Positions 10,534 to 51,649 of a stretch of 52,019 nt of DNA are shown one piece after another (position 1 is the stretch's first letter; every line of letters starts with the position of its first letter). The stretch is from positions 98,232-150,250 of IMG/VR virus record IMGVR_UViG_3300035655_000051. One strand, 5' to 3'. Both the position numbers and the translations under genes were made by a program. This DNA comes from a virus (lineage: Duplodnaviria > Heunggongvirae > Uroviricota > Caudoviricetes). The notes beneath the pieces were generated by a model that saw only the letters and a list, made by a program, of their open reading frames with translations, was not told the DNA's origin and ran no database searches.

Positions 10534-10649
10534 AGGGTCCTCCTTTCTACCAGCAGCCTAACTACTGGATTTCCGGGAAGCCCCTACGATAACATCCACA
10601 TGTTTAAATAAGCCCCAAAATGGGGTGTGCAGGTGTTCTTCAAGTTTGA

Positions 10650-10658
10650 ATTCTACCA
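10650..10658 (-). promoter_or_regulatory. Extended -10 promoter (TGgTAGAAT) for the peptide transcript
   Basis: Predicted start near 10643 coincides with the 5' arm of a long-range inverted repeat. Confidence 0.5.
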
Positions 10659-10687
10659 TATTCCAAAACAAAAAGGAAGTGTTTATT

Positions 10688-11176
10688 ATAAAAATCTTAG
10701 CTTTTGACCAAGCGCTGATAAAGACCGGCGTCTGTACATTAGACGACGGCACTGTATATCACTCACTGATCGATTTAAGTAAAACCAAAGACCCAGTTGA
10801 GCGTCGCGCTATTATGCGCCAGATGATACAGAGTCGCATCAAAACCAATAACCCCGATCTTGTCGTGATTGAAGACGTAGCGCTGCAAGCATCAGCTAAG
10901 ACAGTAATTCAGCTTGCGCAGTTGCAGGGGGCGATTATTGGAGCGTGTGAACTATTCAATATCCCATATGAAATCATAAAGCCGACTGAATGGCGCAAAA
11001 TGCTCGATTTCAAACAGGGGCGGCAAGTAAAACGCCCAGAACTAAAACAGCAGGCTATTGATTATGTAGCCGAACATTATGGTGAGAATGTCTCTTCTGA
11101 TGAAGCGGACGCGATGTGTATTGCGACTGCCGCACTGATGAGACTTGAACGAAATAAAATTACACAGGAGGACTAA
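10688..11176 (+). CDS. ruvC: RuvC-like Holliday junction resolvase
   Basis: Catalytic pattern ILAFDQ..TG, VVIED, SDEADA. Start probably ATA at 10688 (or GTG at 10679) after AAGGAAG, rather than 10625. Confidence 0.85.
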   Translation: MKILAFDQALIKTGVCTLDDGTVYHSLIDLSKTKDPVERRAIMRQMIQSRIKTNNPDLVVIEDVALQASAKTVIQLAQLQGAIIGACELFNIPYEIIKPTEWRKMLDFKQGRQVKRPELKQQAIDYVAEHYGENVSSDEADAMCIATAALMRLERNKITQED

Positions 11177-12239: not shown

Positions 12240-15200
12240 ATGGCGCGTGAACCAGAACTAAGTATTAAAGTCAAAGTAGATCCACAAATCAAACCAACAG
12301 AATTAAAGACAAGCATTGAGCGAAAAGTAAAACAAAGCGGTGAAAAGCCACAGATTGATATTGACCCTAATGTTGATGGCATAAAAAAGAAGGTCGAAGA
12401 TAAATTAAAAAACATCAAGGCAACTGCAAGTATAACGCCTGTTGTCGATACTGAAAAACTAAAAACTGATATTCAACAGCAAATTAACGGTATTGGCGAT
12501 ATCCCGAAAGTTACGGTTGGTGTTAACGTTGATGATTTTAGTGATGAACTCAGTAAACGACTCAAAGAAGAATTAAAATCAGTCAATGACAAACTGTCTT
12601 ATTACTTAAAAAATCTCACAACAAATACAGCTGGTTTAAACAGTGTCGTAGAAGGGTTATTTCCAAGTCGTGGCATTTCAAATGCTGTTCAGTCCGAATT
12701 AAAATCAGTTCAGGCAGAATTAACCGCAGGACTAAAAGGCGTAAAGAGTAAAGTAAAACCATTCAAAGAAACAGATCTTTTTCAAATTGGAGATACAGAG
12801 AGCACGACAACAATCCGACGGGTTGAAAAATTGGTTAAAAACATTAGAGACCAATTTGCAAGTCTTGATAATTTTTATGATGCAGATGAAGAAAAGTTTC
12901 TTGATGGATTTAATAGTGAGTTTGAAAAATTTCAAAACAACGCATCCGAAACAGTAGAAAAATTATCTGCTCTAAAAAAGAATTTAAGTAAAGACAAATT
13001 CAGTGATCTTCTTGACAATGAGGATTTTGATGCCGAGTCAACAACAAAGGCCCTTACTCCTCTTATTTCTTTTTTAAAGAAACTCTCAACTGCATCGATA
13101 AAAACAGGAGAAGACTACGATAATTTATATGCACTGTTTAACAACAAAAATACAAACAAACTATTTGACGAGTCCAACGATCATTTAACTAGAATGAAAA
13201 CGCGAGTTGGTGACATCACGGCTGAGACAAAAACTGCTATAGAAGTCACAGGCGAACTCGCTAAAACACTTAATAAAGCTATTAAGGATGACAATTCCGG
13301 TTATCTAAGTGATGCAGAAATAAAGACGTATGGTGCTGCTTTTGATGAAGTTTTGAGCAATATTGCAACAAAACAGGAAGAGATCAATACCCAAAAGCAA
13401 AGAACAGTCGAATTAGAAAATGATCTGTTGACAAAAACAAGATCCAATCGAGAAGCTCTCAAACAAGAACTTGAAGAGTATAAAAATCTATTGAAATCCT
13501 TTGGTGTAAAGGGAGACGAAGATGAGGGTAATCCGAAAGGTAAACCAAAACCGAAAAGCAAAGAACCGGACAAAACTCCATCCCAGAAACCAGCAGAAGA
13601 GCCAAAGGCTGAAAATCAAGACGCTCTAAATAACGGAATCGCTAAAATTCAAGCAATCGTATTTGATATCAATCAAGAGGAACTTCAAAAGTCTATTGAT
13701 ACAATTTTTGCTAAAGTTTCTGCTCCTATCGGATTCAAACCTGCTAATGGCGCTATTGCGAACATAAAGCAGCAACTACAAGAAGCATTTAGTGATATTG
13801 AAATCAATACAACTAATGTGAATTTGCAAAATTCTAAAACCGAAAACACCTCTCCAAAATATCATATATTAAACAAGGACGAGTTGCATAAGTTAGATAT
13901 GGAATTAAGGATGGGTAGTAGTCTTACTTTTACAGATTATAAACAGGGTATAGATAGGTTTATAAGAGCAGATTTTGGAAAGAAGTCCGGATTCCCAGAA
14001 CTTGAGCCTCATGAAATATCAATAGAATTAGCCAAAGAGTTAGGCAACGCCATGAAAAGTTATGACAATGGTAGCCGCAATAATAGTGTTATTGATATCA
14101 TAAAAAAATATGGTGCTAAAACTGATAATGATGGCAACATAATAGATTTTGAAGAATTTGTAAAAGATGCTTCCTACAAATTCTTTGGACCTAAAAATCG
14201 AAATAAAATCACTTCTCAAAATGCAGCAAGACTTCAAGAGATGCTACAGTCTCAAGACAAAGAAATACAAGCATACGCTTCATTTATTGAAAAACTAAAT
14301 TCAAAACTTGTTGAAAGCAAACAGTTTGGACCTCGCGCATATTTTGACGATTCTGATTCGCAATTCTATTATAGTTTATCTCCTGATGAGCAAAATGCTT
14401 TCTCTAATTTTCAGACTAAATCATATTTGGATAAATTTGAGCGTAATTTACACGCCAATCTTGTCGAGCCGGTAGATATTTCAGGTTCAAGTGGATATTA
14501 TTTTAACGATATCAACACTATGGTTGCCGAAATCTACAACCTAGCACAACAGCGTCTTATTCAATCTGTCGGAGATTTGTCAGGACAGACCGAGGCAGTA
14601 AAAGATCAAACTTCTATCCCCGGTAAGGTCACTATCACAGATGCAGATGTTATCGTCGATGTCAAAAATCCAGTAACAATTCCCGGCACTGTCACGGTTG
14701 ATCCGACTTCTGTTCAACTAGGTAATTCTGATGACCTTCAGAAAAATGCCAATGCTCTATCGTCTGTAAAGCAAAGTCTAAATAAAATTTCTACAAGCGC
14801 TGAAGACTATGGCACAAAAATAGCAACTATTGGTCCATCTGTTCAGTATGTCGCACAGGAAGTCGATAATCTCAGCAAGTCTCTTGAGAATCAAATCACA
14901 GACTTGGATCTTATCGCTAAAAAGACAGATGCCTACGGAACCACGGCCAATTCTATCACTCTGAACACAAAAGATGTGGCTGCTCCGACTGCACCGGTTA
15001 ATATTCCCGGCAAGGTAACTCTTAAAGTAGAAGACGTGACACCTCCGAAGGGTTCTGTAAAGATTCCCGGCAAGGTCGAACTCGAGGTTTCTGATATCAC
15101 TCCACCGAAAACGGCAATCGAATTGGAAGGTAAAGTGTCTAACGTTACAGTTGACAATTCCGCCAAGGGCAAAAAGAAGAATGTCAAGGATGATGTTAAA

Positions 15201-18200
15201 AAGCCTGAAGTTATTGATTTGAAGGGAAGGGTCGAACTCAAGGACGAGGATATCAAGAGACCTAATCCTCTGAACCTCAATGGCGCAGTAAAAATCAAAG
15301 CGGCCGATGTTAAGATTGACGATGTTGAGATTTCGAAAAAGAAATTTGACATTAAGGGCAATTTGATTCTGAAGAATGCGGAGATTGTCAATGCAGTAAA
15401 AGAAGCGGCTGGTGAAGCAGCAAAAATCAAAAAGAAAAACAACCCTACCGAGAACAGTAGCAAAGGATCAGAAGAAAAAGCGTCTGATTTTGATCGCAAA
15501 GCGAAAGAAGCCCATCTTGGGTGGCTTATTTCCAATATTGGAGAAAATAGAACATATTTACAGAGCGCAATTTCAAATAAAGATTCAAACAAAAGATCTT
15601 GGTATGCAGGAAAAATTGCAGACTATGAAAAGGATTTTGAAGAAACAACAAGAGAACTCATCGAAAATCTCACAGAAGAAGAGCAGGATTGGATCAAATC
15701 TTTAAAAGGTATAAAAGATTTAGATCTCAATGATCCAAAACAGATCGATGAACTCATGGCAGATAAAACAATCTCGTGGCCATGGGAAGAAAGCGGCTCT
15801 TATTTAAACGGTACATTAAAAGCTGCCAATATGGCAGGATTTTATAATGTTTCTGAAACCGATAAAGCTAAAAAGAGAAATAGCTATGAAAAAGAATATA
15901 TTGAGTTAATAAAACAAAAACCGGCATTAATTAAAGCTGCTGCGGAAGCTAAAAAGCAATACGGCGAAGACAGTGGCGCCTATAAGGATGCTGTAAAGGC
16001 AAAAAAAGAAAATGAAGATGCTCTACGTGCTATTAAGGCTGATAGGCAAAAAGCCGGTGCCCCGAGAGGAATTGTTGGTGGTGGCTATTCAAACTCCCCT
16101 GCTGTCCAAAGCACATTGGCTGACATTCATAAACAAGTTCAAAAAAGGCGTTCAGAATTATTGTTACAAAAAGCAAAAGATTCTAAAAGCGCTGATAACA
16201 AACAGGTTCAGCAAGCCAAAAAAATTCTATCAGACGCATTTATTGAACAGGCAAGAGCTTATGCTAATGGACTAAAGGAATCTGCGAAGTACAATGATGA
16301 CGACGCCTCTGAATCCGCAAAAACTGCTCGTCAACAGATGCAAGATGCTTTTGATTCCGCTAATGATAAATTTTTAGATTTACTTGATGTCCTTTCTGGA
16401 GACGAAATTGATCAGCTTACATTAAGAACAAAGAAGGAACTTGATTCTGCAAATATAATTGTAGAGCGTCGAACTTCGAAGCGCATTGATAACAATAACA
16501 AACTTCAAGATAATCGCTACCAGAATCTTATTGATAATTTATCAAATAAGCAAAAAACTTATGGAACCGTAGAAGAGGGTAAAACAGCGACGGATATTCA
16601 AGTTGCGCTTCAAAAGCAGCAAGAACTTGTATCACAGATTGCCAAAGCAAAGGTTGGTACAGAAGAGTACAACAACGCAATTCAAGCCGCAGAAGAAAAC
16701 TGGAAATCTGTTGTGGCAATTATAGACACTGTAGAAAAGAAGCAAAAAGACCTTGCGAAAGCCGTCGATAGTATTGAAAAGAAATTCTATCAGCTTGCAG
16801 AAGAAGCCTCTGGCAGCTCTAATGAGAAATTAAAGAACTCTATCAATGGAGTCATCACAAAAGCGGCTACACTTAGTGCTCAAAACCCAAACACATATGA
16901 GAATTATGCAGTTGATTATAATGAGTTAAAGCGTGAATCTTACAAAGCCAACGCGCAATACACCATTTGGAAGAGCAATTATAAGAAACTTGAGCGCGAA
17001 GGCATCAAAATCGCCGAGGGTGTTGAAGTTGCTCGACAGATGCAGACCGATGGAAGTCTTCAGAATGTCAAATTTGATAGTATCGATAATCTTCTTAGGC
17101 AGTTAAATGAGCTTGAGCCTCAGACTGACGCTTATAAAGAAAAACTTGTAGAAGTCAAAAAGATTTGGGAAGAAATCGAAAGAAAAGTTAAAGCCGTCGA
17201 AGAGGCGGAAAACCAAGCCGCAAAACGAGAAAGTACAAAGGCGGCAAATTTAACCTCTGTTGGAAATGCCATATCTCAAAATAGGGCTACAATGAAGGAC
17301 GTCCAGAAGAATTATGGTACTGATTATTCTTTTTATGGTAAGCTGCAAGAAAAAGATTCAAAGCTCAAAACTTTACTTGACACAGTAAATGAATCTTCAG
17401 ATCCGGTATCCGCTGCCAAAGGATGGGCACAGAATAACCTTGGTATATCTCCAGATAAAATTAATTCTGTAACGGATGCAATAAATCAATTAAACATCGC
17501 ATATAGAGAGGCAACACAAGAAGCAAAAGATTTCAATAAAGAAGCTTCTCGTGAAAAATCTATAAATAAGGCATCAATGGAAGTCGCTAATTTGAAGGCA
17601 ACTATTCATGATTATATTGCCGAACATAAAAAGCTTGAAGGAACAGATGTTGGGAAGTCTCTCTACGAGTTGCTTGAAGCATTGAATCAAAGCGATGCAC
17701 CAGAGAAAATTGGCGAATTGAAAAAGAAATATGCAGAGCTTCGCGCCGAATCTAAAAAGTTGGGTCTTGAATCAAGAAATCTACTTGATGTGTTTGAAAA
17801 ACTGTTTGGTCAGCATTTGAGCACTATGATCACTATGGCAGCACTGCACAAGATGCAAGACGCGCTGCGGATCGTGTATCAGAATGTGGTCGAGATTGAT
17901 ACGGCAGTAACTGAGTTAAGAAAAGTCAGTGAATATACAGGAAAGTCCCTTGAAGAGTATATGGGACGTGCCGCAGAACAGGCTCAAAAGTTAGGCGTAT
18001 CTATAAGTGACTATGTTAATTCAACTGCAGATTGGAAGCGGCTTGGTTATTCTGATGAAGACGCCGAGAATTTAGCAACCTACTCTACCCTACTTCGTAA
18101 CGTTGGTGATAATATCGATGATGTTAACACCTCGTCTTCATATTTGATTTCTACTCTGCAAGGCTTTGGGCTGTTAGCCGATCAAGCAGAAGATGTCGTT

Positions 18201-18368
18201 AACAAAATTGACGCTGTGGCAAACACGCAGCCTGTTACTGCAAAAGACCTTGGCGAAATCTTGACTCGCAGTTCTGCTGCTATGTCGGCCGCTAATAATA
18301 CGCTGGAAGAAACTATTGCACTTGGTACTGCTGCAAACTCAGTTATCCAAGATGCAGATACGGTCGGT
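12240..18368 (+). CDS. Tail tape measure protein, exon 1 (2043 codons)
   Basis: Long coiled-coil ending in the TP901-type tape measure core (EIDTAVTELRKV...DADTVG). The unspliced ORF stops 7 codons into intron 1. Confidence 0.9.
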
Positions 18369-18639
18369 AAAGTATATGCCGACGCTGCCTAGTAATAGGT
18401 AGCTAGAAAAATTAGCTATATCGGTCAAAATCCAGAAGTGGACAAGACCGAGGTAAGTGAAAACACGCACCGTAGAGACTGTAATACCTTATATGGTAAC
18501 ATATAGGGTTTAGCTATCCCCTATTATTCTTTCTAGGGTGAAGATCCAGTCCGAACTCACGATATAACAAAATGAAACGTGAGAGGTAGCCAGAAATGAC
18601 TGCCCGCCATAGAAATATGGTTATAAAAGTAACAGCTTG
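18369..18639 (+). ncRNA. Group I intron 1 (271 nt, ORF-less) in the tape measure gene
   Basis: P1 GTCGGT/GCCGAC with a U-G pair at the 5' splice site. P7 GAGACTG (18475-18481) pairs with CAGTCC (18547-18552) after an AAGAT J8/7. P9-type hairpins, terminal G at 18639. Removal gives in-frame ...DADTVG|TTLKSLSMYLR.... Confidence 0.92.
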
Positions 18640-19203
18640 ACAACTTTAAAAAGTTTATCAATGTATCTCCGTGCAGCTAAAAGTGACGCAGAGAATGCAG
18701 GCATTGAAGTTGACGGTATGGCCAATTCTGTGTCTGAGCTCCGCAGTGAACTAAAATCTCTGACTGGCGTTGACATCATGCTAGATAGCAAAAATTTCAA
18801 GAGTACATATCAAATCATGAAAGAGCTGTCTCAAGTATGGAGTGGTCTGTCCGATGTAACGCAAGCAAATGTCACTGAAATGATTGGCGGAAAGAGAAAC
18901 GCAAATGCAGTTAGTGCTATTCTAAACAATTTTGATGTTGCTGAATCTGCTATGGAATCCGCTGCTAACAGCGACAACGTGGCATGGGAAGAGAATGAGA
19001 AGTGGCTCGACAGTATCCAAGGCCGCCTTGGGCAACTCGACGCAAGCTTCCAAGTCCTTTCTCAAGACGTTCTCTCTTCCGACCTCGTAAAGGGCGGCGT
19101 ATCTTTCCTCACATCGATTGTTAAACTTCTTGATAAAATCATTAATCTCACTGGTGCCCTTCCTGCTGGATTGGGCATCGCAGCATTTGCAACTCAGCTG
19201 GGT
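18640..19203 (+). CDS. Tail tape measure protein, exon 2 (188 codons)
   Basis: Continues the tape measure core (LTGVDIM..FKSTYQIMKELSQVW, IGGKRNANAVSAIL); bounded by two phase-0 splice sites. Confidence 0.9.
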
Positions 19204-19594
19204 GAACCCAAAATGACGGGTTTCATGATTGTGCCCAGCAATACTCCGGGTGGTGACACGGAACAAGTGCTCCGCAGGTATTTTATTATATCATTGCGAA
19301 GCATGAGGGAGTATTTAGTAAAACCGACGAACATGGTGGCCTAGCCACGGCGAGTTTGGGTAATTCTCGTCCGGGAACCGAAAGGAATCCGCAGGCAAGC
19401 TCTGCATGTGCCTACATTATTATAATAGGCACTGCCAGAGACGCTTCAGAGAGCATAATGTCGGAGTGGAGCTACGTGCGCAACAACGCCACAGATTCAC
19501 TATGGGGTGCTCCAAATCACTGCTACGCAATCAAGCGCACGCAGGAAAAATTACAGGCGGTCTTTCCCCTGCCGTCAAAAGTGGAGAATAAAAT

Positions 19595-19623
19595 TTGACA
19601 GAAGAATTATTATGTGATAGTAT
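19595..19623 (+). promoter_or_regulatory. Sigma70-type promoter for the first cargo operon
   Basis: TTGACA-17 nt-TAGTAT with an extended TG. Confidence 0.7.
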
Positions 19624-19635
19624 CAGGAGGAAAGT

Positions 19636-19869
19636 ATGGACGAAAAAATCAAAAAGATTTGTGAAGAATATGCATGGGCGTGGTATTTTGATCTTCCGCA
19701 TAGACTAGAGTGGCAGAATAAATATTTTCAAGCACGCAGAGGGCTTTCCGAAGAAGAAAAAATTTCTGTAACTGAATACTTTTGTAAATGCCAAAACAAG
19801 AATGAAAAACTTCTTCCACAAATTGATTATGTTGGTCCATTTGAATCCTATTTAATTAAAGAGGAATGA
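19636..19869 (+). CDS. Intron cargo: hypothetical protein, 77 aa
   Basis: AGGAGG RBS, own promoter, AT-rich. Confidence 0.7.
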   Translation: MDEKIKKICEEYAWAWYFDLPHRLEWQNKYFQARRGLSEEEKISVTEYFCKCQNKNEKLLPQIDYVGPFESYLIKEE

Positions 19870-19873
19870 GATA

Positions 19874-20359
19874 ATGTCTGAGCTGAAGACGTATACCTTT
19901 GTATATGATGAGATTGCAAAATTGATTATAATCCCAGTAATATTCAAAACTAATAATTGCATGATGAAGGTAAAAACGCTCATTGATACTGGCGCTGCTG
20001 CAAGTTATATTTCAAGTTTTGTTTCTACATCTTTAAATCTTCAACTTACAGGAAACGTATATCACGTTAAATTTGGAGAAGATGACGCAACTCGTCCTTC
20101 TGTTTATGCTAATTTGATATTGTCTTCTGATATTTGCTTTTCAAACAAAGAGTTAACCGTTCTCAAAGATGAACCTCGTGCTTATGATGCCATTATTGGC
20201 ATGGATATCTTGTCGAAAACGGATTATTCCGTAAGCAATTATAACGGTCATACCACGTTCAGCCTTCGTATACCATCACAAGCAGAGATAAAATACGGAG
20301 AAACAGAAGACATCGATTTACTAATGGACAAAATTGAAGATGCTCTTCTTTCGACATAA
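19874..20359 (+). CDS. Intron cargo: retropepsin-like aspartyl protease
   Basis: LIDTGA catalytic motif and downstream AIIGMDIL motif of clan AA single-domain aspartic proteases. Confidence 0.85.
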   Translation: MSELKTYTFVYDEIAKLIIIPVIFKTNNCMMKVKTLIDTGAAASYISSFVSTSLNLQLTGNVYHVKFGEDDATRPSVYANLILSSDICFSNKELTVLKDEPRAYDAIIGMDILSKTDYSVSNYNGHTTFSLRIPSQAEIKYGETEDIDLLMDKIEDALLST

Positions 20360-20365
20360 TCTATA

Positions 20366-20394
20366 TTGACACGGCATGCGCCGCAAGCTATAAT
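20366..20394 (+). promoter_or_regulatory. Perfect consensus sigma70 promoter
   Basis: TTGACA-17 nt-TATAAT upstream of the 110-aa gene. Confidence 0.85.
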
Positions 20395-20450
20395 AAAAAT
20401 ATCAAAAAAACAATGCGCAAACAAAACGCATGTAGTGGAGGTATTTTATT

Positions 20451-20783
20451 ATGGCACGTCCTAAAGGAAGCAAGAATAAAGCAAATACAGCTGCAGTTGT
20501 TGATTACGAAGCTATGATTGCAGAGAAAAACGCTGCTATTGAAGCAACCAACAGTGAGATCGCATCTATCACTGCAAATATTGATACGCTGAAGGGCGAT
20601 CTGAAAACACGCAAAGTAGAACTTAAAAAACTGAACAAAGATATTGCAAAATTGGAGTCCAAGAAATCTGCCGCCGATCAGAAGGCCGCTGAAGCTGCTG
20701 CTGAAAAAGAAGCCATTGATCTTGTGAAGAAGGCATTGGCAGGTGGCACCACTGTTGATGAAATCATTGAACTGCTGAAATAA
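20451..20783 (+). CDS. Intron cargo: small coiled-coil protein with AT-hook-like N-terminus
   Basis: MARPKGSKNK followed by a Lys/Ala/Glu-rich coiled coil; GGAGG RBS; own promoter and terminator. Confidence 0.8.
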   Translation: MARPKGSKNKANTAAVVDYEAMIAEKNAAIEATNSEIASITANIDTLKGDLKTRKVELKKLNKDIAKLESKKSAADQKAAEAAAEKEAIDLVKKALAGGTTVDEIIELLK

Positions 20784-20817
20784 CGGCTGCACCGCAAGGT
20801 GTTGTCGTAATGAACAA

Positions 20818-20857
20818 GCCCGACTTCCCTACTGCTGGGAGGTCGGGCGTTTTATTT
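20818..20857 (+). terminator. Strong intrinsic terminator between the convergent cargo units
   Basis: GCCCGACTTCCC-tactgct-GGGAGGTCGGGC followed by GTTTTATTT. Confidence 0.8.
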
Positions 20858-20941
20858 ATGCCATTTTAGTCAGTTACAACTTACCACTCATACATATAGT
20901 TCTTGTGGTAGAATTATTTACTGGGTTTGCTGGCGGTACAA

Positions 20942-21277
20942 TCACTTTTGTACTTTTGCTTTCCGCTCTGCTTCTAGCTTTACAAAGTCAAGCCCATATA
21001 AATCTTCAAGCTCTTCAAGGACGTGCTTGATTCCATATCCAATATGCATCTCGTTTGCGCCAAATTTATAATAGATATCGCCAAGCGCTTCAGGTTCAAG
21101 TCCAAGATCGTCAATTCGACCTCTGAATTTCCCATGGCCGTCAACGGTTACAGGATACCGAAAATCAGCGCCCCACTCATCAGTCCATCCGTTGTACGAG
21201 TCGCTATTTGCACATGTGTCGCCAATTCTGTATTCAAGTTTGCAAATGAGGTTCATAATGTCCTGATTGACTTTCAT
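20942..21277 (-). CDS. Intron cargo (antisense): hypothetical protein, 111 aa
   Basis: AAGGAG RBS on the minus strand, 12 nt downstream of the 215-aa gene. Confidence 0.75.
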   Translation of the reverse strand: MKVNQDIMNLICKLEYRIGDTCANSDSYNGWTDEWGADFRYPVTVDGHGKFRGRIDDLGLEPEALGDIYYKFGANEMHIGYGIKHVLEELEDLYGLDFVKLEAERKAKVQK

Positions 21278-21289
21278 TTTAATTCTCCT

Positions 21290-21937
21290 TTAAAAATTAC
21301 TCCCGCAGTTTTTGCAATGCCACTGTTTGCCGATCTTCCCGCTGGCAGCCCCCACGAGAGACACAGATACGGCGCGGCTCACAGTGCTAATCTTCTCGGT
21401 GTTCGTGGATTTGCAATAGGGACAGATGACACGCTTACCGCTGTCAAGGTCTTGCTGAGTCTTTATATGTTCATGCATTTCCTGCATCATTTTAGCGTCT
21501 TTGAGTGCCTGTTGTTTACGTTCTGCTTCTTTTCTCTCTCGTTCGATGCAACCCGGGTCGGCTTGTTCGCGGAGATAATCATGATACCATTGCACAAAAA
21601 GAGAATTTGCTCGTCTGTGTGGTTCTCCACTTTTACCTTCATATAGATGACTTTCTTTTACGAACAAAATCGCTTCCTTCATACACTCATCATACTTGAT
21701 TTTGAGATTTTTGTTTTCTATTAAAATTTGATCAGCCAAATAAGCATACACAATAGATATGTAAAAGTCATTATCATCTTCTAATGTTGGATCGTGCTTT
21801 AAATATTTATAATTGGGATATCGTTTTAATAAGCGCTTTCCCTCTTTTATCATAGCTCCTTTTGTGTAATTACTAAACATATTTTGAGCAACAGCACACT
21901 TAACATCGATATCTCGTTCTATTATGCCAAGCTTCAT
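21290..21937 (-). CDS. Intron cargo (antisense): protein with C-terminal zinc ribbon
   Basis: CPYCKS...WHCKNCG flanking a small Gly/Ala/Ser-rich hydrophobic segment; GAGGTG RBS. Confidence 0.8.
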   Translation of the reverse strand: MKLGIIERDIDVKCAVAQNMFSNYTKGAMIKEGKRLLKRYPNYKYLKHDPTLEDDNDFYISIVYAYLADQILIENKNLKIKYDECMKEAILFVKESHLYEGKSGEPHRRANSLFVQWYHDYLREQADPGCIERERKEAERKQQALKDAKMMQEMHEHIKTQQDLDSGKRVICPYCKSTNTEKISTVSRAVSVSLVGAASGKIGKQWHCKNCGSNF

Positions 21938-21982
21938 TTAATACACCTCATTGACAAATAATCTTAACCGACCATTAAGATT

Positions 21983-22011
21983 ATTATACGCTTTGACAAT
22001 CAATAAGTCAA
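21983..22011 (-). promoter_or_regulatory. Minus-strand sigma70 promoter straddling the 3' splice site
   Basis: Minus strand reads TTGACT-17 nt-TATAAT; the -35 lies in exon 3 and the -10 in the intron. Confidence 0.8.
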
Positions 22012-25000
22012 TGATTGAGCTCGGTAAAGGATTTGATGGAACTATTGAAAAGGCAATTTCTTCTACTGAAAAACTTAATGGTATTCCAAAAATCCTTCAG
22101 AAATTTATGATGTTTGGAAACAAAAAGGCTGGATTGTTAACAGAAATCGATGCGACTTCTTTTGAAGGTAATATGCTTGGGAAAGACATCCAAAATTATG
22201 TGGCTCAAATCGCCAATCTTGATAAAAATCAACGAAAAGCAATTGAAAGCACAACTAAATTTGGTGATGGTGTAAAAAGTGCGGCAGACGCTCTTCTTAA
22301 CGCGGTAGATGCTGGTGAAAAAATCAATTCCAAACTTTTCGAGTCCACTTTAAAATCGTGGTCTCATGGCGACATTTTAGCGGGCGATATTAACTCACTA
22401 ATGGCTGTCGGTAACATGAAGAATGGCGACAAGTATGCTCTCCCGGACACAAAACAAGCAATAAAAAACATTAACGATTGGGCGAATGCTGTAGAAAACG
22501 CCGAAGCAAAACAACGACTGCTTAATTCTGGTATTCTTGAAACAGATGGCTCAACTGTAAAACTTAGTAGCGGTTTCTTAAAGTTAATCCAAGTTGAAAA
22601 GACTGATGCTGCCGTTACTGCTGGTCTGACGGCAGAAAAAGAAATTCTCAATATTGTCATGCAAGCAGGCAAGCAACTTCTTGTAAGTATTGCAATTGGT
22701 GCATTTATTAAAGGTCTTGAAGTCGTATACAAAAAAATGACTCAGATTGACGATAAAATTGCCGAAGTCGCGAATGATTCCAAACAGCAGGCTGATAACT
22801 TGTCTTCTACCAGCAAATCTCTTAAAGATTTGGTTTCTCAATATGAAAAAATGGGAGACAAAACTTATAGAACAGCAGAAGAATCGGAAAAATTGGCAGC
22901 GCTTCAAGAGCAGATTACGACGTTGCTAAAAGATCAACCCGGTGTTAGCGAAGAAATGCTCAAGCAAGTTAATCTTCAGAACGCAAGCTATGACACTCAG
23001 CTTCAATTGTTAAAAGATATTGAAGAACAACAGCGTAAAAACGCACATAGAGATCTTGTAGATAATGTTGAAGACCAAGGGGATTTGCTGGTTGAAGCTT
23101 ATAAGAAAAAAGCTCAGAGATTCAAAGTCGGTGCAAATGCTGGCGAAAGAAATATTGTCAAAGAACTTATAAGAGACGGTTTTGGAAATTTTGAAGATGA
23201 TACAGGAGATTTTAATTTTAATATAGATCCAGAAGACCCTGATGCAATTCTTAATCTATATAATTCTCTTGGCGAAGAGGTTGATAAATTAACCGAAACA
23301 TATTCTGACGATGAGCTTGAAGGATTAAAAAATGTTAGAAAAGAACTCAAGCAATATATCGAAGATTATAAAAATGGTAAAGAACAACTCCACGACAATG
23401 AACTTCCAGATGTCACTAATGACGCGCTTAAAAAGCTACAGAATCAAAAAGAGCTTGCTGACAGTTTTACTCCTTCTAAACCTGCCGAAGAAGTAAATTT
23501 TGATGATAGCATAAAGAAAACAAAAGAATATCAAGCTGTATTAAAAAATCTTCAAGACACAAAAGAAAAATTTGAAGAAAAGGGCTTTGGTCAATACGGT
23601 AACATCAATAATCTAAATCGTGATATGATTTATTGGACGGACGAGAACAAAAAGAAATATCACGATTTTGCAGAGGAGAATCCAGACGATGTGGCTGGTG
23701 AGTATTCTACTGTTTTAGGCACTTATGACAATATTTATAATGGCGACAAGTCAATGCCCCTTATGACGTACACCCCTATGCTTCAAACTGATGATGGTCT
23801 TGTTCCTCTAACTAAAGAGCAGGTGCAGCGTTACATTGAGACGATTGCAGAATCTTCTTGGACTGAAGATAATACCTTAGACCTTGATAAGTTATTGAAG
23901 CTTGACGCTGAAGGACTTGAACAGGATATCAATGGTGAGATAGTTCGTGTAAAAGGTCTAATTGGTGGAATTGAAGGAACAAAAGGACCAGATGGGAACA
24001 TTCTAACAAAAGCAGACATTATGGCCATGTCAGGCAATAATAATCAGGAAATCATTTCTGATATGCAAAGAATGTATAACCTTAATCGTGCTGATTTGCC
24101 AAATGCGTCAGAAACTTTGAGTCGATATGTCGGTAATTCAATGCACGATATTCAAGGCGCTGTATCAGAAGCGGAAAAAGATGTCGATCGCGTTTACAAA
24201 TTGTTAGATACCAGCGCAAAGAAATCTTATGAAAATACGGCAAAATATTGCGATGAAGCAGCACAGAAACAATTTTCAGATTATACCGAAATCAAAAATG
24301 CTGTTGACACTTTAAAAGCTGGTGTATCTGGATTTGATACAACGAATCTTACGTCTTTGCTGAATAGCGATGGTGAAAACCTTGGCCGGATCGATACTGA
24401 AGCGCTTGAAAAGCTAAAGCAAATCATGACAGACTTCGGGTTTGATCCAACTGTTGCAGCCGACGTTCAAGCGTTTGTTGACACATTAAAGCAGCTTGAA
24501 ATTGTTTCCCCATCCGTAATTGAGAAGAATCAACAAATAGCACAATCTGTTACTGATGCAGCTACCCAAATGAGTAATGCTTCTCAGGGCATTGATGATA
24601 TGCAAAAAGCGTATCAAGCATGTAAATCTGCAGTCGATGAATACAATAAAACAAAATATGTAAGCGCCGACACTCTACAAACTCTTATGAATCTTAATCC
24701 GCAGTATCTTTCTATGCTACAAGATGAAGACGGACAATTGTCTATCAACACTTTAACAGCGAAAAAGCTTACAGCTGCTACGATTCAGACTCAGCGGGCT
24801 GCTTTGTTGGCAAACGCCGTCACTCAAATTCAACAAACCAATACGCTTGCTGCGGCGCAAAAAGTTCTTGGTGAAGCACAAGCTACCATTGGCAACGCAA
24901 CACAGATCCTTACTAGCGCATTGTATCAGTCGGCAGAAGAAGGTCTTGCAAATAATGGCAGTTTTGAGGAAATGCAAGCTGTTCTGTCAGCTGGTCATCA

Positions 25001-28000
25001 AATTATAAGCAATTATAAAATGATGGATAAGCTCTGGGCAGAACTGGCAAAACAGGACCCTGATAAAATTTGGGGTAAAAATAGCACATCTAAATCAAGC
25101 AAAACCGCAAAAGCAAGTAAAACAGCTCTTGATGCGTGGTCTAGTTTGTCATCTGCAATGAAAGAGTTTAATCAGCAGGGGTATATTACACTCCAAACAT
25201 TAAAGAGCCTTTCTGATCTCGAAGATCGATATGTTGCATTGTTGACTAAAAACGACGTTACAGGGCAATTGGAAATTCAAACAGACGCATTCTACAATCT
25301 TACCAAAGCTGAACTTAAAGCTGCACAAGCTAAAGGTGACGGCGTAAGTGAATCAGAATACAATAAGATTCTTGAATGGACAAATCGCAATATCAAAAAA
25401 CAAACTATGTCTTACTGGGATCTTGTTGCGGCGATTGAAGGATATTCTGCTGCGTTGAGCGGAGCCAAGGATATTACTGATACGTTCAAAGATGCATGGA
25501 GTAACGGCAAGACTGTCAAAGAAAAACAAGAAAAGAGTCGCGCCGGCGCACTTGATTATGAAGGTACTGAAGCACAATCCTCTGCTCTGCAAGACCTGAT
25601 GAAGTACAGTGAATATGACCCTGAATTGATTAGCAAGGCTTTCAATAAGGAAACTGGCAAAATTGATCTGAGTGGAGACGTGCTGAAAACCGCCGTTGCA
25701 AAATCTCTCGAGCAGTATGCCGCCGCAGCTCGCACTGAAGGCGGAGAAGCCGCTGAAGCTATTGCTGCAAGCTATGAAAAGTCTGCTGAGAATATTAAGA
25801 ACGATGTCATTTCTGTGCAGGACTTTTTTGATGGTCTTGGTTCTACGATTGAAGAAGTCAGTTCAAAGATTGATGAAGTGCAGAGTGCGTTTACAGATAT
25901 CGACGATATAAAGGATGAATATGATATATATGGCGGCCTGAGCGTAGACTCTTTGCAGAAGTTGCTCACTATGTCCCCTGACTATATTGCTTGTCTCGAG
26001 ATGGAAGGAGACCAACTCATTTTCAATCGCGACAAGATGGTCGAGCTCTTAATCGCACAGCTTGAGTCAAAGAAAGAATTCTTGCTGTCTAAAGAAGAAA
26101 CTAAGGATCAGGCCGAAATAATCCAGAAAATCATTGACGCTCTCCGAAAAGATGGTGTTAACGCTCTCGCTGGAATGAATTATCAGGCTGAAAAATTCAA
26201 ATCTGCTCTATCCGATGCAAAAGACATCCTTTCTTCTTTCCTCTCTCTCCTTTCGTCCGCAAATGACAAATCCAACAACGACCTCAAGATTTGGGGCGAC
26301 ACGATGAATAAAGTCATCGACAAGCGGATTGAGGCTCTGAATAAGCAGAAGGAAGCTTTGGAAGAAAACAACGAAGCCACCGAGCGTGCTATTGAACTTT
26401 CCAAGGCACAGGATGCTCTTGCCCGCGCCCAGCAACAGCGCACGACCCGTGTGTACACTGAGAATGGCTACGAGTGGCAGGCAAACGCCGAAGATGTGCG
26501 TACTGCACGTGAAGACCTTGCTGACAAGCAGCGCGAGTGGAATAACAAGGATGCCGAAAAGGCTATTGATGACCAAATCAAGAAGTACAATGAGTTCAAG
26601 GACAAGTTGTCTGAAGTCATGGATGATATCGGCAAGAGCTGGAAGGATTACCAGAAGGAACTTGAGTACACTGCGCAGATCCAGAAGATGACTCTATCTC
26701 AGATGGAAGGCTCACTGGACGGCTATCACAATAAGATCATCGCAAGCCTGAATACCGGCAGCGCGATCACCGGCATCCAAAATCTGATTACAAGCCTTGA
26801 ATCACTGATCAATACGCTTACGAAGGTAAATAACCTGTATTCCATGCTTAAAACTGGTGAGTACAAAGATCTCGGTATAAAAGGTCTGTGGAATACGATA
26901 AAAGGATTCTTTAATAAGGGTGGCGAAGAAGCAACTGGTGAGTCCGCTAATGTAGTTGAGAATTTCTTCAACGTCTTAAGGAGTAAAGTTCAGACTTCTG
27001 GGAACGGACTTGTTGAAACATTTAGCGGTATCTGGGAGAGGATCAAAGGTGGCGCTCGGAGCCTATTTAACGGTTCCGGCGAAGGCGGCGGCATCATTTC
27101 TACTGTTGTAAATGGATTCAAAGCAATCGGTAATGCTGTTAGTAAGAGCAAGATTGGTTCCACTCTTATTAAAGGCGCAGGAAAACTAGTCACTGGTGCT
27201 GGCGGACTTATCAAAGGCGCTGTTAGTGCTATAGGTGCTGCTGGCGCTTCTGCAATCCCTGTTGTTGGTGGTCTTGCTGCAGCGGCTGGTCTTGGTATTT
27301 ATAGCGGTGTAAAGGGTATAAAGCATCAAAAGGAGATCTGGTCCAACAAAGAAGACGGTTTTGGCAAAAAGGCTATAAAGTCTGTTGCGTCGTTCTTCTG
27401 GGACATCAGTCCGATTGGTGGAATCGTAAATCTATGTAAAGACATTTTCGGTAAGAGTAAAGAAACTGCCGAGAATACAAAAGATACTGCGAATAGTAGT
27501 TCTGAAACTGCCGAAAACACACAAAAGAGCGCAACAAATCTCACAATTAACGCTACACAGATCGTATCTAAAGAAGAGAATAAAGCAACTGACGAAACAG
27601 ACAAAAAGAATGACGCAATCGCCAATGAAGATAAAACAGTCAAAACGGCTGCTACAACTCTTACTGGTGCTGGTCTGGGCGCAGCTGCGGGTATGGCAAT
27701 AGGTGGACCTGTAGGAGCATTGATTGGTACTCTTTTAGGAGGTTTTGCTGGTTTCTTTTTGGGTGGTCACGCGAATGGTCTTAAATCTTCTAAAACGAAT
27801 CATTTTGCAAACGTTGACGAAAGAGGTTCAGAACTTATTGTTCGTAAGCCAGCTTCTGGACGTTATACATATCTTGAGACTGGCGATGGTGTTGTTCCTG
27901 CTGATATTACCTCTCGCCTGTTTGAGATGGGCGGCAATCCAGACAAGTGGTTCAGCGATCAATTGGCAAAACATAGTTCTGCTTCTATGGTACAAAGCCG

Positions 28001-28133
28001 TGACGCTGGTGGTATTTCCCTGTCTATTGGTGATGTGAATGTAAACAATCCCGTTGGTGATAGCGATGCACTGGCTCGTGAGTTGGTAAATCGTCTGCCG
28101 AACAAGGTTGTACAGGAACTGAATAGACGTTAA
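21996..28133 (+). CDS. Tail tape measure protein, exon 3 (2045 codons plus stop)
   Basis: Coiled coil, Gly/Ala-rich hydrophobic segments, C-terminal HANG...VDERGSELIV...GDGVVPA motif typical of tape measure ends. No convincing RBS at the ORF-track start 21951. Confidence 0.88.
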   Translation, partial: TINKSMIELGKGFDGTIEKAISSTEKLNGIPKILQKFMMFGNKKAGLLTEIDATSFEGNMLGKDIQNYVAQIANLDKNQRKAIESTTKFGDGVKSAADALLNAVDAGEKINSKLFESTLKSWSHGDILAGDINSLMAVGNMKNGDKYALPDTKQAIKNINDWANAVENAEAKQRLLNSGILETDGSTVKLSSGFLKLIQVEKTDAAVTAGLTAEKEILNIVMQAGKQLLVSIAIGAFIKGLEVVYKKMTQIDDKIAEVANDSKQQADNLSSTSKSLKDLVSQYEKMGDKTYRTAEESEKLAALQEQITTLLKDQPGVSEEMLKQVNLQNASYDTQLQLLKDIEEQQRKNAHRDLVDNVEDQGDLLVEAYKKKAQRFKVGANAGERNIVKELIRDGFGNFEDDTGDFNFNIDPEDPDAILNLYNSLGEEVDKLTETYSDDELEGLKNVRKELKQYIEDYKNGKEQLHDNELPDVTNDALKKLQNQKELADSFTPSKPAEEVNFDDSIKKTKEYQAVLKNLQDTKEKFEEKGFGQYGNINNLNRDMIYWTDENKKKYHDFAEENPDDVAGEYSTVLGTYDNIYNGDKSMPLMTYTPMLQTDDGLVPLTKEQVQRYIETIAESSWTEDNTLDLDKLLKLDAEGLEQDINGEIVRVKGLIGGIEGTKGPDGNILTKADIMAMSGNNNQEIISDMQRMYNLNRADLPNASETLSRYVGNSMHDIQGAVSEAEKDVDRVYKLLDTSAKKSYENTAKYCDEAAQKQFSDYTEIKNAVDTLKAGVSGFDTTNLTSLLNSDGENLGRIDTEALEKLKQIMTDFGFDPTVAADVQAFVDTLKQLEIVSPSVIEKNQQIAQSVTDAATQMSNASQGIDDMQKAYQACKSAVDEYNKTKYVSADTLQTLMNLNPQYLSMLQDEDGQLSINTLTAKKLTAATIQTQRAALLANAVTQIQQTNTLAAAQKVLGEAQATIGNATQILTSALYQSAEEGLANNGSFEEMQAVLSAGHQIISNYKMMDKLWAELAKQDPDKIWGKNSTSKSSKTAKASKTALDAWSSLSSAMKEFNQQGYITLQTLKSLSDLEDRYVALLTKNDVTGQLEIQTDAFYNLTKAELKAAQAKGDGVSESEYNKILEWTNRNIKKQTMSYWDLVAAIEGYSAALSGAKDITDTFKDAWSNGKTVKEKQEKSRAGALDYEGTEAQSSALQDLMKYSEYDPELISKAFNKETGKIDLSGDVLKTAVAKSLEQYAAAARTEGGEAAEAIAASYEKSAENIKNDVISVQDFFDGLGSTIEEVSSKIDEVQSAFTDIDDIKDEYDIYGGLSVDSLQKLLTMSPDYIACLEMEGDQLIFNRDKMVELLIAQLESKKEFLLSKEETKDQAEIIQKIIDALRKDGVNALAGMNYQAEKFKSALSDAKDILSSFLSLLSSANDKSNNDLKIWGDTMNKVIDKRIEALNKQKEALEENNEATERAIELSKAQDALARAQQQRTTRVYTENGYEWQANAEDVRTAREDLADKQREWNNKDAEKAIDDQIKKYNEFKDKLSEVMDDIGKSWKDYQKELEYTAQIQKMTLSQMEGSLDGYHNKIIASLNTGSAITGIQNLITSLESLINTLTKVNNLYSMLKTGEYKDLGIKGLWNTIKGFFNKGGEEATGESANVVENFFNVLRSKVQTSGNGLVETFSGIWERIKGGARSLFNGSGEGGGIISTVVNGFKAIGNAVSKSKIGSTLIKGAGKLVTGAGGLIKGAVSAIGAAGASAIPVVGGLAAAAGLGIYSGVKGIKHQKEIWSNKEDGFGKKAIKSVASFFWDISPIGGIVNLCKDIFGKSKETAENTKDTANSSSETAENTQKSATNLTINATQIVSKEENKATDETDKKNDAIANEDKTVKTAATTLTGAGLGAAAGMAIGGPVGALIGTLLGGFAGFFLGGHANGLKSSKTNHFANVDERGSELIVRKPASGRYTYLETGDGVVPADITSRLFEMGGNPDKWFSDQLAKHSSASMVQSRDAGGISLSIGDVNVNNPVGDSDALARELVNRLPNKVVQELNRR

Positions 28134-50616: not shown

Positions 50617-50870
50617 TGGCAGACAACCAGAATACATTTCGTGCAGGAGACAAAATTAAATTAGATGGAGTATTATTTTCAAACAGCCAGACTCACTGCG
50701 GTATGCGCCGCCGGGGAGAATGGTTTATCTATGATGGAAAACTAGTCAATGGTCGTTATCGGGTGACGAATCTTGAAAGCCGCATTGGCAAGTATCCAAT
50801 TTCAGTAAATGTATCGGGTTATGTTGAACCGAGCGATATTGAACTAGTTGACAACAGGAATGAACGTTGA
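50616..50870 (+). CDS. Small SH3-like cell-wall-binding-type protein
   Basis: TGATG coupling to the endolysin; GDKIKL...IYDG...NGRYRVTN...VSGYV pattern resembles lysin C-terminal domains. Confidence 0.55.
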   Translation: MADNQNTFRAGDKIKLDGVLFSNSQTHCGMRRRGEWFIYDGKLVNGRYRVTNLESRIGKYPISVNVSGYVEPSDIELVDNRNER

Positions 50871-50876
50871 TATTAT
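50848..50876 (+). promoter_or_regulatory. Sigma70 promoter for aroD
   Basis: TTGACA-17 nt-TATTAT with an extended TG. Confidence 0.75.
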
Positions 50877-50896
50877 TATTCCAAGGAGGAGATATC

Positions 50897-51649
50897 ATGT
50901 CTATTGTTGTTCGTGGCTGTCATATTGGGGAAGGTAGACCTAAAGTCACAATCCCAATCGTTGAAACAACTGAAGCAAAAATTTTAGAACGCGCATTTGA
51001 GTTTTCAAGGCTTCGTATTGACTGCGTGGAGTGGCGTGTTGATTGGTTTGAACAATGCATGGATGCACATTCTGTGGTATCTTGCCTGCAAAAACTTCGT
51101 GTGGCATTGAAAGACAAGCTCTTGCTTGTGACATTTCGTACCAAGGCAGAGGGCGGAGAAGTGTCTTTGACCCACAAAGAATATTTAGATTTCATCAACA
51201 CGGTAATAGATACTGACTGTGCAGACCTTATCGACATTGAATTCTTTACAGCTGGAGATGGTGTTCGTGAACTGGTAGACAATGCACATTCTTCTGGAGT
51301 TGTGGTTATATGTTCAAGCCATGATTTTCAAAAGACGCCTAATAAAAATGAACTCATTTCTCGTATGGTTAAAATGCAACAGGTCGGAGCTGATTTACCG
51401 AAAGTAGCAGTTATGCCGCACGACAGCACGGATGTATTGACTTTACTGGCCGCTACGGTTGAAATGAAAAATAAATATTTTGCTACTCCTATTATCACAA
51501 TCAGCATGAGTAAGCTTGGTGTTGCCAGTAGGTTATGTGGGGAGGTCTTTGGCTCTGCCATGACTTTTGCCAGCGCTGGAGACTCAAGTGCTCCCGGACA
51601 GATTGGACTGGATGTTGTCAACGCCGTGTTAGACTCAATAGCAGAATAA
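50897..51649 (+). CDS. aroD: Type I 3-dehydroquinate dehydratase
   Basis: VEWRVD, TFRT..EGG, SSHDF (catalytic His), ADLPKVAVMP (Schiff-base Lys), SRL, SAPGQI; ATG at 50897 after AAGGAGG. Confidence 0.95.
   Translation: MSIVVRGCHIGEGRPKVTIPIVETTEAKILERAFEFSRLRIDCVEWRVDWFEQCMDAHSVVSCLQKLRVALKDKLLLVTFRTKAEGGEVSLTHKEYLDFINTVIDTDCADLIDIEFFTAGDGVRELVDNAHSSGVVVICSSHDFQKTPNKNELISRMVKMQQVGADLPKVAVMPHDSTDVLTLLAATVEMKNKYFATPIITISMSKLGVASRLCGEVFGSAMTFASAGDSSAPGQIGLDVVNAVLDSIAE

Follow-up and report, generated by a model that had tools for sequence, protein, structure and literature searches.

Group I introns have been described in the tape measure protein (TMP) genes of Bacillus cereus-group prophages, where they are designated TMP-IVS1, IVS2, and IVS3a/b, and the available text of the same report also names the IStrons CdISt1 and BcISt1 (PMC2504315). 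The moron HK97 gene 15 encodes gp15, given as a superinfection exclusion protein in the accessible part of PMC3594210, and for SPbeta, the accessible part of PMC5467207 describes the late genes as being transcribed by YonO as one operon with little pausing. Here, a stretch of 52,019 nucleotides (nt) from a Caudoviricetes record (IMGVR_UViG_3300035655_000051), referred to as the window, was analyzed. The window covers the late part of this 150,250-nt record, with genes for portal, head, and tail proteins, a holin, and an endolysin, and its TMP gene is predicted to be divided into three exons by two group I introns. We consider it quite probable that both inserts are spliced in cis from a late transcript made by a YonO-like polymerase, yielding a TMP of 4276 amino acids (aa), and that the second insert serves as a swappable island of accessory genes.

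IStrons are mobile elements in which a group I ribozyme removes a long insert other than a homing endonuclease gene (HEG) and uses a distant 3' splice site, and they carry insertion sequence transposase genes. The second intron of the window (intron 2) is likewise a long non-HEG insert with a distant 3' splice site, but it differs from an IStron in that its site is fixed and no transposase family, beyond weak zinc-ribbon matches, was found among 19 representatives of the cargo proteins. Ltp is reportedly a further case of phage exclusion. The cargo of intron 2 is similar to such morons (HK97 gene 15, in the available text) in having its own promoter and terminator, a lower GC content, and a place in the tail operon; morons, however, sit between genes, whereas this cargo interrupts an essential gene within its coding sequence and would need splicing. 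As in SPbeta, whose YomI is matched by exon 2 at 30%, a YonO homolog is found upstream of the late genes, but yomI is annotated as one gene, and read-through of intron terminators is not described in the available text of PMC5467207. Finally, the B. cereus-group TMP genes resemble this one in that their introns are of group I, number more than one per gene, show different cores at one site (IVS3a/IVS3b), and have undergone HEG loss, and intron 1 of the window is of the kind found there. As far as that text goes, those introns have IA1 or IA2 cores with or without an HEG, and no accessory cargo is described (PMC2504315), whereas intron 2 is 2-6 kb long, is fixed in its clade, and holds convergent genes that have promoters and terminators. 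In the literature searched (mostly open papers), TMP introns themselves are published, but none was found to be described as housing an island of accessory genes, and the available portions of PMC11318856 and PMC8987985 do not describe cargo in a TMP intron. The comparison gives good support to the view that the split TMP gene would be of a known kind and that the fixed, cargo-carrying, and exchangeable intron would be a new form of it.

The tape measure gene and its two predicted junctions

The predicted layout of the gene was as follows.
12240..18368, + strand: TMP exon 1, 2043 aa, the end of which is the first half of the TP901-type core
18369..18639, + strand: intron 1, 271 nt, a compact group I intron with P1 GUCGGU/GCCGAC, P7 GAGACUG/CAGUCC, and a terminal G
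18640..19203, + strand: TMP exon 2, 188 aa, the second half of the core, ending in a hydrophobic segment
19204..21995, + strand: intron 2, 2792 nt, a cargo-carrying group I intron
21996..28133, + strand: TMP exon 3, 2045 aa plus the stop codon

Joining the three exons in frame gave 4276 aa with zero internal stops, and the exon borders named in the original prediction (12240-18368, 18640-19203, and 21996-28133) proved exact to the base. That prediction had also taken the three reading frames for one spliced TMP of about 4276 aa, and this is supported as the best reading by the agreement of frame, splice sites, ribozyme cores, and an uninterrupted homolog of the same length. The homolog, P0136 (4283 aa), aligned continuously to the spliced product over both junctions, with a single high-scoring segment pair covering residues 1581-3986 at 37.7% identity, further N- and C-terminal segment pairs, and a register at junction 2 that held to within one residue. 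The alignment of the TMP of Enterocloster phage PMBT24 likewise crossed both junctions, and the best likenesses of exon 2 were to TMPs of Enterocloster phages (37-38%) and to the SPbeta YomI noted above. Among 148 representatives of the TMP family, 100 ran more than 80 aa beyond the junction 2 site, 37 of which also aligned to exon 3; the remaining 48 stopped 80 aa or less from it, some at contig ends and many by reading into an intron. The gene belongs with TP901-type TMPs by its TIGR01760/PF10145 core and its place after the tail chaperones. A continuous core restored from all three exons had been expected, and this was borne out for exons 1 and 2, which together complete it (TIGR01760 positions 15-164 and 196-344, respectively, of 349), but not for exon 3, which lies beyond the hidden Markov model (HMM). 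The second join therefore rests on homologs and RNA pairing and not on the HMM.

Intron 1 showed the precise insertion, P1 U-G pair, P7, and terminal G of a group I intron. It begins after a U and folded with a z score of -5.0, and its P1, P3, P4, and P7 lie in an order (layout annotated by hand) that we take to be IA2-like. The exon 1/exon 2 join was uninterrupted in the DNA of 44 of 48 close relatives, and the other 4 held an intron of 1315-1316 nt with the same ends; over 80 clade loci, the site was exactly empty in 66, occupied by the 1315-1316-nt form in 9, and not visible in 5. This long form encodes a 359-aa treble-clef protein that is nuclease-like by motif only, with weak matches to HNH-annotated genes, and the window copy is without this open reading frame (ORF). 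On these comparisons, intron 1 is an ordinary optional mobile group I intron whose nuclease-like ORF has been lost. The suggestion that two ribozymes form a control point for tail assembly thus fits intron 1 poorly, as most relatives do without it; only intron 2 is fixed. A third group I-like intron, of 1.58 kb and with a 377-aa ORF, was seen inside exon 2 at L049:6420-8000, and loci L050 and L051 break at the same place.

The predicted ribozyme of intron 2 and a proposed passage through terminators

The nearer relatives that carry an intron at or close to the second site fall into the clade of the window (clade A) and a sister clade (clade B; 80 of 156 loci sampled, with the 3' site visible in 75). 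Intron 2 was present throughout its clade, with lengths of 2003-5196 nt in 47 clade A loci and in all three frames. The elements assigned to its splicing were as follows.
19204..19555, + strand: ribozyme core (predicted helices)
19226-19232: P10 guide
19233-19239: P1 guide
19240-19247/19308-19315: P2
19324-19329/19459-19464: P3
19370-19446: P4-P6
19449-19456/19507-19513: P7
19465-19470/19496-19501: P8; P9 is variable
19556..19588, + strand: predicted H-type pseudoknot at the core-cargo border, two helices with one double-sided change each
21957..21985, + strand: 3' hairpin with a compensated stem and an invariant GACC loop
21995, + strand: terminal G

The group I core occupies the first 390 nt of the intron. 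In a model of 29 sequences, 99.6% of 2059 cells were paired, versus 38-48% in slid controls, and 7 of 71 pairs showed changes on both sides, a number reached in 0 of 500 shuffles. P1 comprised 7 bp with a U-G pair at the 5' splice site in all 29 sequences, and the P3/P7/P8 and P4/P5/P6 helices were 100% paired, with the G-binding pair and bulge of P7 and a double change in P8. Of 52 relatives, 51 have the 5' site, the one exception being a locus that stops short of it. For the 3' site, the tally was 47 of 52 sequences with the window counted in, and the 5 remaining loci do not extend that far. A G preceded exon 3 in 47/47 clade A and 75/75 clade B loci, while positions -2 to -4 were variable. 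The 7-nt guide, which the predicted fold leaves unpaired, matches the first bases of exon 3 as P10; 6 of 6 pairs were present in 45 of 47 loci, and all 37 substitutions at positions 1-5 were A-to-G changes opposite U that kept the pair. In a nested fold of the core plus the 3' end, P10 had a probability of 0, but a value of this kind is uninformative for a helix that forms a pseudoknot with P1. Within the 3' hairpin, 8 of 11 pairs had changes on both sides, and the G-U variants favored the + strand; a partner for its invariant GACC loop was looked for and not found. GUAAUU in a core loop (19360-19365) is complementary to AAUUAC after P9 (19549-19554), both occurring in 37 of 47 loci by a rough pattern with one G-U variant, and may possibly form an extra long-range pairing. 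Two other candidates were discarded: a 3' site at 19598 (shared TTTGACA) is a -35 box, was not conserved, and left no open frame, and a P7-to-P7 DNA pattern gave 7 matches, all by chance in unrelated sequence, its gap range having shut out close relatives.

If intron 2 no longer spliced, the TMP would consist of two chains, one of exons 1 and 2 ending within the intron and the other of exon 3, with a moron island between them. Gene callers routinely report such proteins (119 of 120 read into the intron), and no close uninterrupted allele was found. Nevertheless, exon 3 had no start codon of its own with a Shine-Dalgarno (SD) sequence in 46/47 clade A and 75/75 clade B loci, the read-through tail after exon 2 varied in length and sequence, and the catalytic core and terminal G were invariant and the changes in P10 preserved pairing. 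Two separate chains are thus highly improbable, and we infer that both introns are spliced.

Hairpin/U-tract terminators on the + strand were present inside 47/47 clade A and 74/75 clade B introns and in 3/47 and 2/75 exon controls of equal length, which, being coding DNA, show only that the siting is nonrandom. Such sites also lie between other late genes, and the late polymerase is for this reason likely to pass them. A candidate for this polymerase is a YonO-like single-chain RNA polymerase of 849 aa (G000:C1:90449-92995, + strand), encoded upstream of the window and the late genes, which has the DFDGD motif (DxDGD), scored over the cutoff for PF05183, and was 23% identical to SPbeta yonO over 87%; homologs were found in 10 of 10 intron-bearing records examined. 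The homolog of G007 (G007:C1:89849-92401) holds one TAG, and those of G004 and G008 were matched in two separate frames, so these three are possibly broken or intron split. Terminators in 121 of 122 intron interiors would also suit splicing in trans, in which an RNA ending at the internal terminator meets, via P10, a second RNA that starts downstream and includes exon 3 together with the 3' hairpin and the terminal G. The 5' core, which is catalytically complete by predicted pairing and whose final pseudoknot could serve as a 3'-end cap, and the unpaired guide are in keeping with this as well. A + strand sigmaA-like promoter was seen in the last 700 nt of the intron at only 1/47 and 5/75 loci, with no common place, although an internal YonO start is conceivable, and the terminator-like sites between other late genes point to a polymerase that passes them; splicing in trans is accordingly judged very unlikely.

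Under cis splicing, the host sigmaA polymerase would read the genes of the island from the cargo promoters, probably in the lysogen as well, and would halt at the internal terminator, whereas the phage YonO-like polymerase would run the late operon through it. P1 with its U-G pair would set the 5' site, the cargo would be looped out past P9, and the 3' site, 2.4 kb away, would be chosen by the terminal G and the 7-nt P10 guide, which is not sequestered, perhaps with aid from the 3' hairpin.

Several observations weigh against this reading. Kinship inflates all of the counts, and 57 of the 71 core pairs were invariant in clade A and hence carry little information. P4 has one invariant C-C mismatch, position 6 of P10 was broken in 7 of 8 substitutions, P9.0 was not conserved (position -2 is U in 34/47, with pairing possible in the window), and a competing G, followed by a 7/7 match to the guide, occurs within the cargo at 21575. 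The Rfam scans gave nothing of relevance in the window; RF00028 matched neither window intron at E values up to 10, with no score above the gathering cutoff, and matched the clade B core only weakly (18.8 bits versus a cutoff of 50); this miss reflects a limit of the model, because intron 1, for which an exact empty site was found, was missed as well. P6 and P7 of intron 2 differ from what we take to be the usual consensus by compensated pairs, and these departures, together with the P4 mismatch, may explain the Rfam result. In four contig sets over 17800-22600, no 19203-21996 joint was found, and the intron 1-less join appeared in one run of unrecorded type; neither spliced form was seen as RNA, in a comparison of contigs that is evidence neither way. 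A close allele free of intron 2 did not turn up among 317 loci, and a second search gave 0 matches; junction 2 consequently rests on pairing and on homologs of about 38% identity. The YonO homolog also occurs in relatives that lack the intron and therefore cannot tell the readings apart, and the available text of PMC5467207 does not address YonO on intrinsic terminators.

The cargo island and its zinc-ribbon gene

Intron 2 of the window carries five genes in two convergent units with a central terminator. These and the adjoining exon segment are as follows.
19595..19623, + strand: sigmaA-like promoter of the first cargo genes, 10/12
19636..19869, + strand: 77-aa protein of no family
19874..20359, + strand: 161-aa clan AA aspartyl-protease-like protein
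20366..20394, + strand: sigmaA consensus promoter, perfect 12/12
20451..20783, + strand: 110-aa coiled-coil protein, in 47/47 clade A and 71/75 clade B introns
20818..20848: intrinsic-terminator hairpin between the convergent units, U-tract on the + strand
20942..21277, - strand: 111-aa protein of no family
21290..21937, - strand: 215-aa helical zinc-ribbon protein, beside the 3' splice site
21983..22011, - strand: sigmaA-like promoter of the leftward cargo, with the -35 in exon 3, the -10 in the intron, and the spacer across the splice site
22146..22595, + strand: TMP segment of hypervariable sequence (aa 51-200 of exon 3; pairwise identity, 32-38%), flanked on either side by a hydrophobic segment

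Counted as SD-filtered ORFs, the cargo formed 32 architectures in 47 clade A loci and 26 in 75 clade B loci, and 11 of 24 families were common to both; several of the initial ORF families were antisense artifacts and were replaced by this count. The cargo had a GC content of 38.5%, versus 49.9% for the core, 44.9% for exon 2, and 41.1% for exon 3, and by this distinct GC, its own promoter and terminator, and its patchy presence it has the features of a moron. No homing endonuclease was found in either window intron, and the 19 representatives of the cargo included no nuclease family. Elsewhere, the intron cargo included a PemK-like toxin (L042:10601-11284) and a Panacea antitoxin with a PemK-like partner (L033:9521-10401). 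PADLOC gave only weak matches to the cargo (E of 4e-5 or worse), mostly to coiled coils, and an Atlas search with the coiled-coil protein returned two unnamed clusters and one generic coiled-coil cluster. The latter protein opens with an RPKGSKNK motif, which we take to recall an AT-hook, and it may be a DNA-binding silencer or antisilencer. The leftward promoter straddled the 3' splice site in 47/47 clade A loci, and a transcript from it would run antisense to the 3' hairpin; the promoter-like site of clade B mostly lay about 150 nt inside exon 3.

The last leftward gene encoded a zinc-ribbon protein, with the ribbon C-terminal around a hydrophobic loop, in 47/47 clade A and 75/75 clade B introns. 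Its alleles had a mean identity of 54% in clade A and 49% in clade B, and they coclustered with the first 250 aa of exon 3 (adjusted Rand index [ARI], 0.82 for 42 loci and 0.74 for 44 of 75) but not with exon 2 (ARI, 0.08 and 0.03). The variable stretch of exon 3 was the most variable of its first 900 aa. The predicted fold of the zinc-ribbon protein (pLDDT, 84.5) had no match in PDB or BFVD at E values up to 0.001, and the Atlas returned unnamed clusters only. We tentatively regard the protein as a possible exclusion factor paired with the adjacent tail segment; the agreement between the alleles could also come from adjacency alone.

The same agreement could be cited if splicing takes place but the cargo has gathered as neutral clutter, tolerated in a loop of a selfish intron that became fixed, an arrangement that would not be under selection and that shares the splicing step with our preferred reading, differing only on why intron 2 is kept. 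Loops beyond P9 are known to tolerate ORFs. On the other hand, two genes are near constant across two different ribozymes, a stricter zinc-ribbon motif was found at 0 of 128 open or truncated loci versus 28 of 45 interrupted loci, and switching between the open and the interrupted state is required at least 3 times, and at best 7 times, on the tree. Neutral clutter is thus rather doubtful, and with the cargo as an accessory island, intron 2 would be retained for useful genes held at no protein cost, above all the zinc-ribbon gene next to the hypervariable segment. A broader proposal, for which we would give somewhat less than even chances, is that different ribozymes were repeatedly domesticated at one point of the TMP gene in SPbeta-like gut phages, with an island expressed by the host polymerase up to its terminators, terminators ignored by the phage polymerase, removal of the island from the tail mRNA by the ribozyme, and a zinc-ribbon resident that recognizes the adjacent segment and excludes phages of the same allele, such that intron, exclusion gene, and target would be one inherited unit with an exchangeable ribozyme.

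Relatives, probable host, and possible consequences

The core of the clade B intron was different, its DNA likeness to that of clade A being short and at chance level only; this intron lay a few codons downstream and had its own P1 and P10, with lengths of 1870-6167 nt and all three frames represented. Since clades A and B were sisters in the exon 2 tree (100/97) and yet have different cores, either a replacement of the ribozyme or two separate gains would have occurred, with the cargo pool kept. Of 173 loci that are more distant, 120 were open, 45 interrupted, and 8 truncated, and nine core types were labeled by motif. The distant inserts carried zinc-ribbon and NYN proteins and membrane or surface proteins. 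Automatic P1/P10 calls at 11 distant loci were clean in 7 and unconvincing in L151, L177, L231, and L234, and they are not independent tests, because several guides also pair with the exon starts of other lineages. The changes between open and interrupted sites were counted on 62 dereplicated rows of 251, with the bootstrap not settled. At L152, the same TMP site holds a group I-like core, and the next long ORF, from about 10650 onward, presumably starts with a TIR-like motif.

The host is probably a member of the gut Clostridia, because a clade B locus sits in a Faecalibacterium metagenome-assembled genome (MAG) and a clade A locus sits in a Peptococcaceae MAG; a search of genome contigs with exon 2 gave no match. 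The phage genome (G000) encodes a tyrosine integrase, and this and three provirus records are consistent with a temperate life. A RuvC-like resolvase gene lies within the tail module just ahead of the chaperones (window 10625-11176, + strand), as in PMBT24, and a type I 3-dehydroquinase gene directly follows the lysis genes (window 50867-51649, + strand) and would be either a phage metabolic gene or host DNA.

At 0.15 nm per residue, 4276 aa would give a tail of about 640 nm if all residues measure; the tail of about 600 nm put forward in the original prediction is one of its weaker claims. Tails of 480 and 500 nm are given for lactococcal phages L47 and 949 in the available text of PMC3888941. 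The combined length of exons 1 and 2 ranged from 1391 to 2103 aa among 110 relatives (a set mostly limited to 2000 aa), and because of this difference of some 700 aa, either tail lengths vary or part of the TMP does not measure.

The multigene island in intron 2, which was absent from the original prediction, would bear on more than this one gene. If the reading is true, group I introns would be more than selfish passengers and would let phages hold islands of accessory genes inside essential genes, and this would account for the annotation of TMP genes in an abundant gut phage group as two truncated halves separated by stray genes. These introns would further provide natural ribozymes able to select a 3' splice site at a distance of 2-6 kb, across terminators, and the many natural pairs of zinc-ribbon and tail-segment alleles would offer possible exclusion factors together with their targets.

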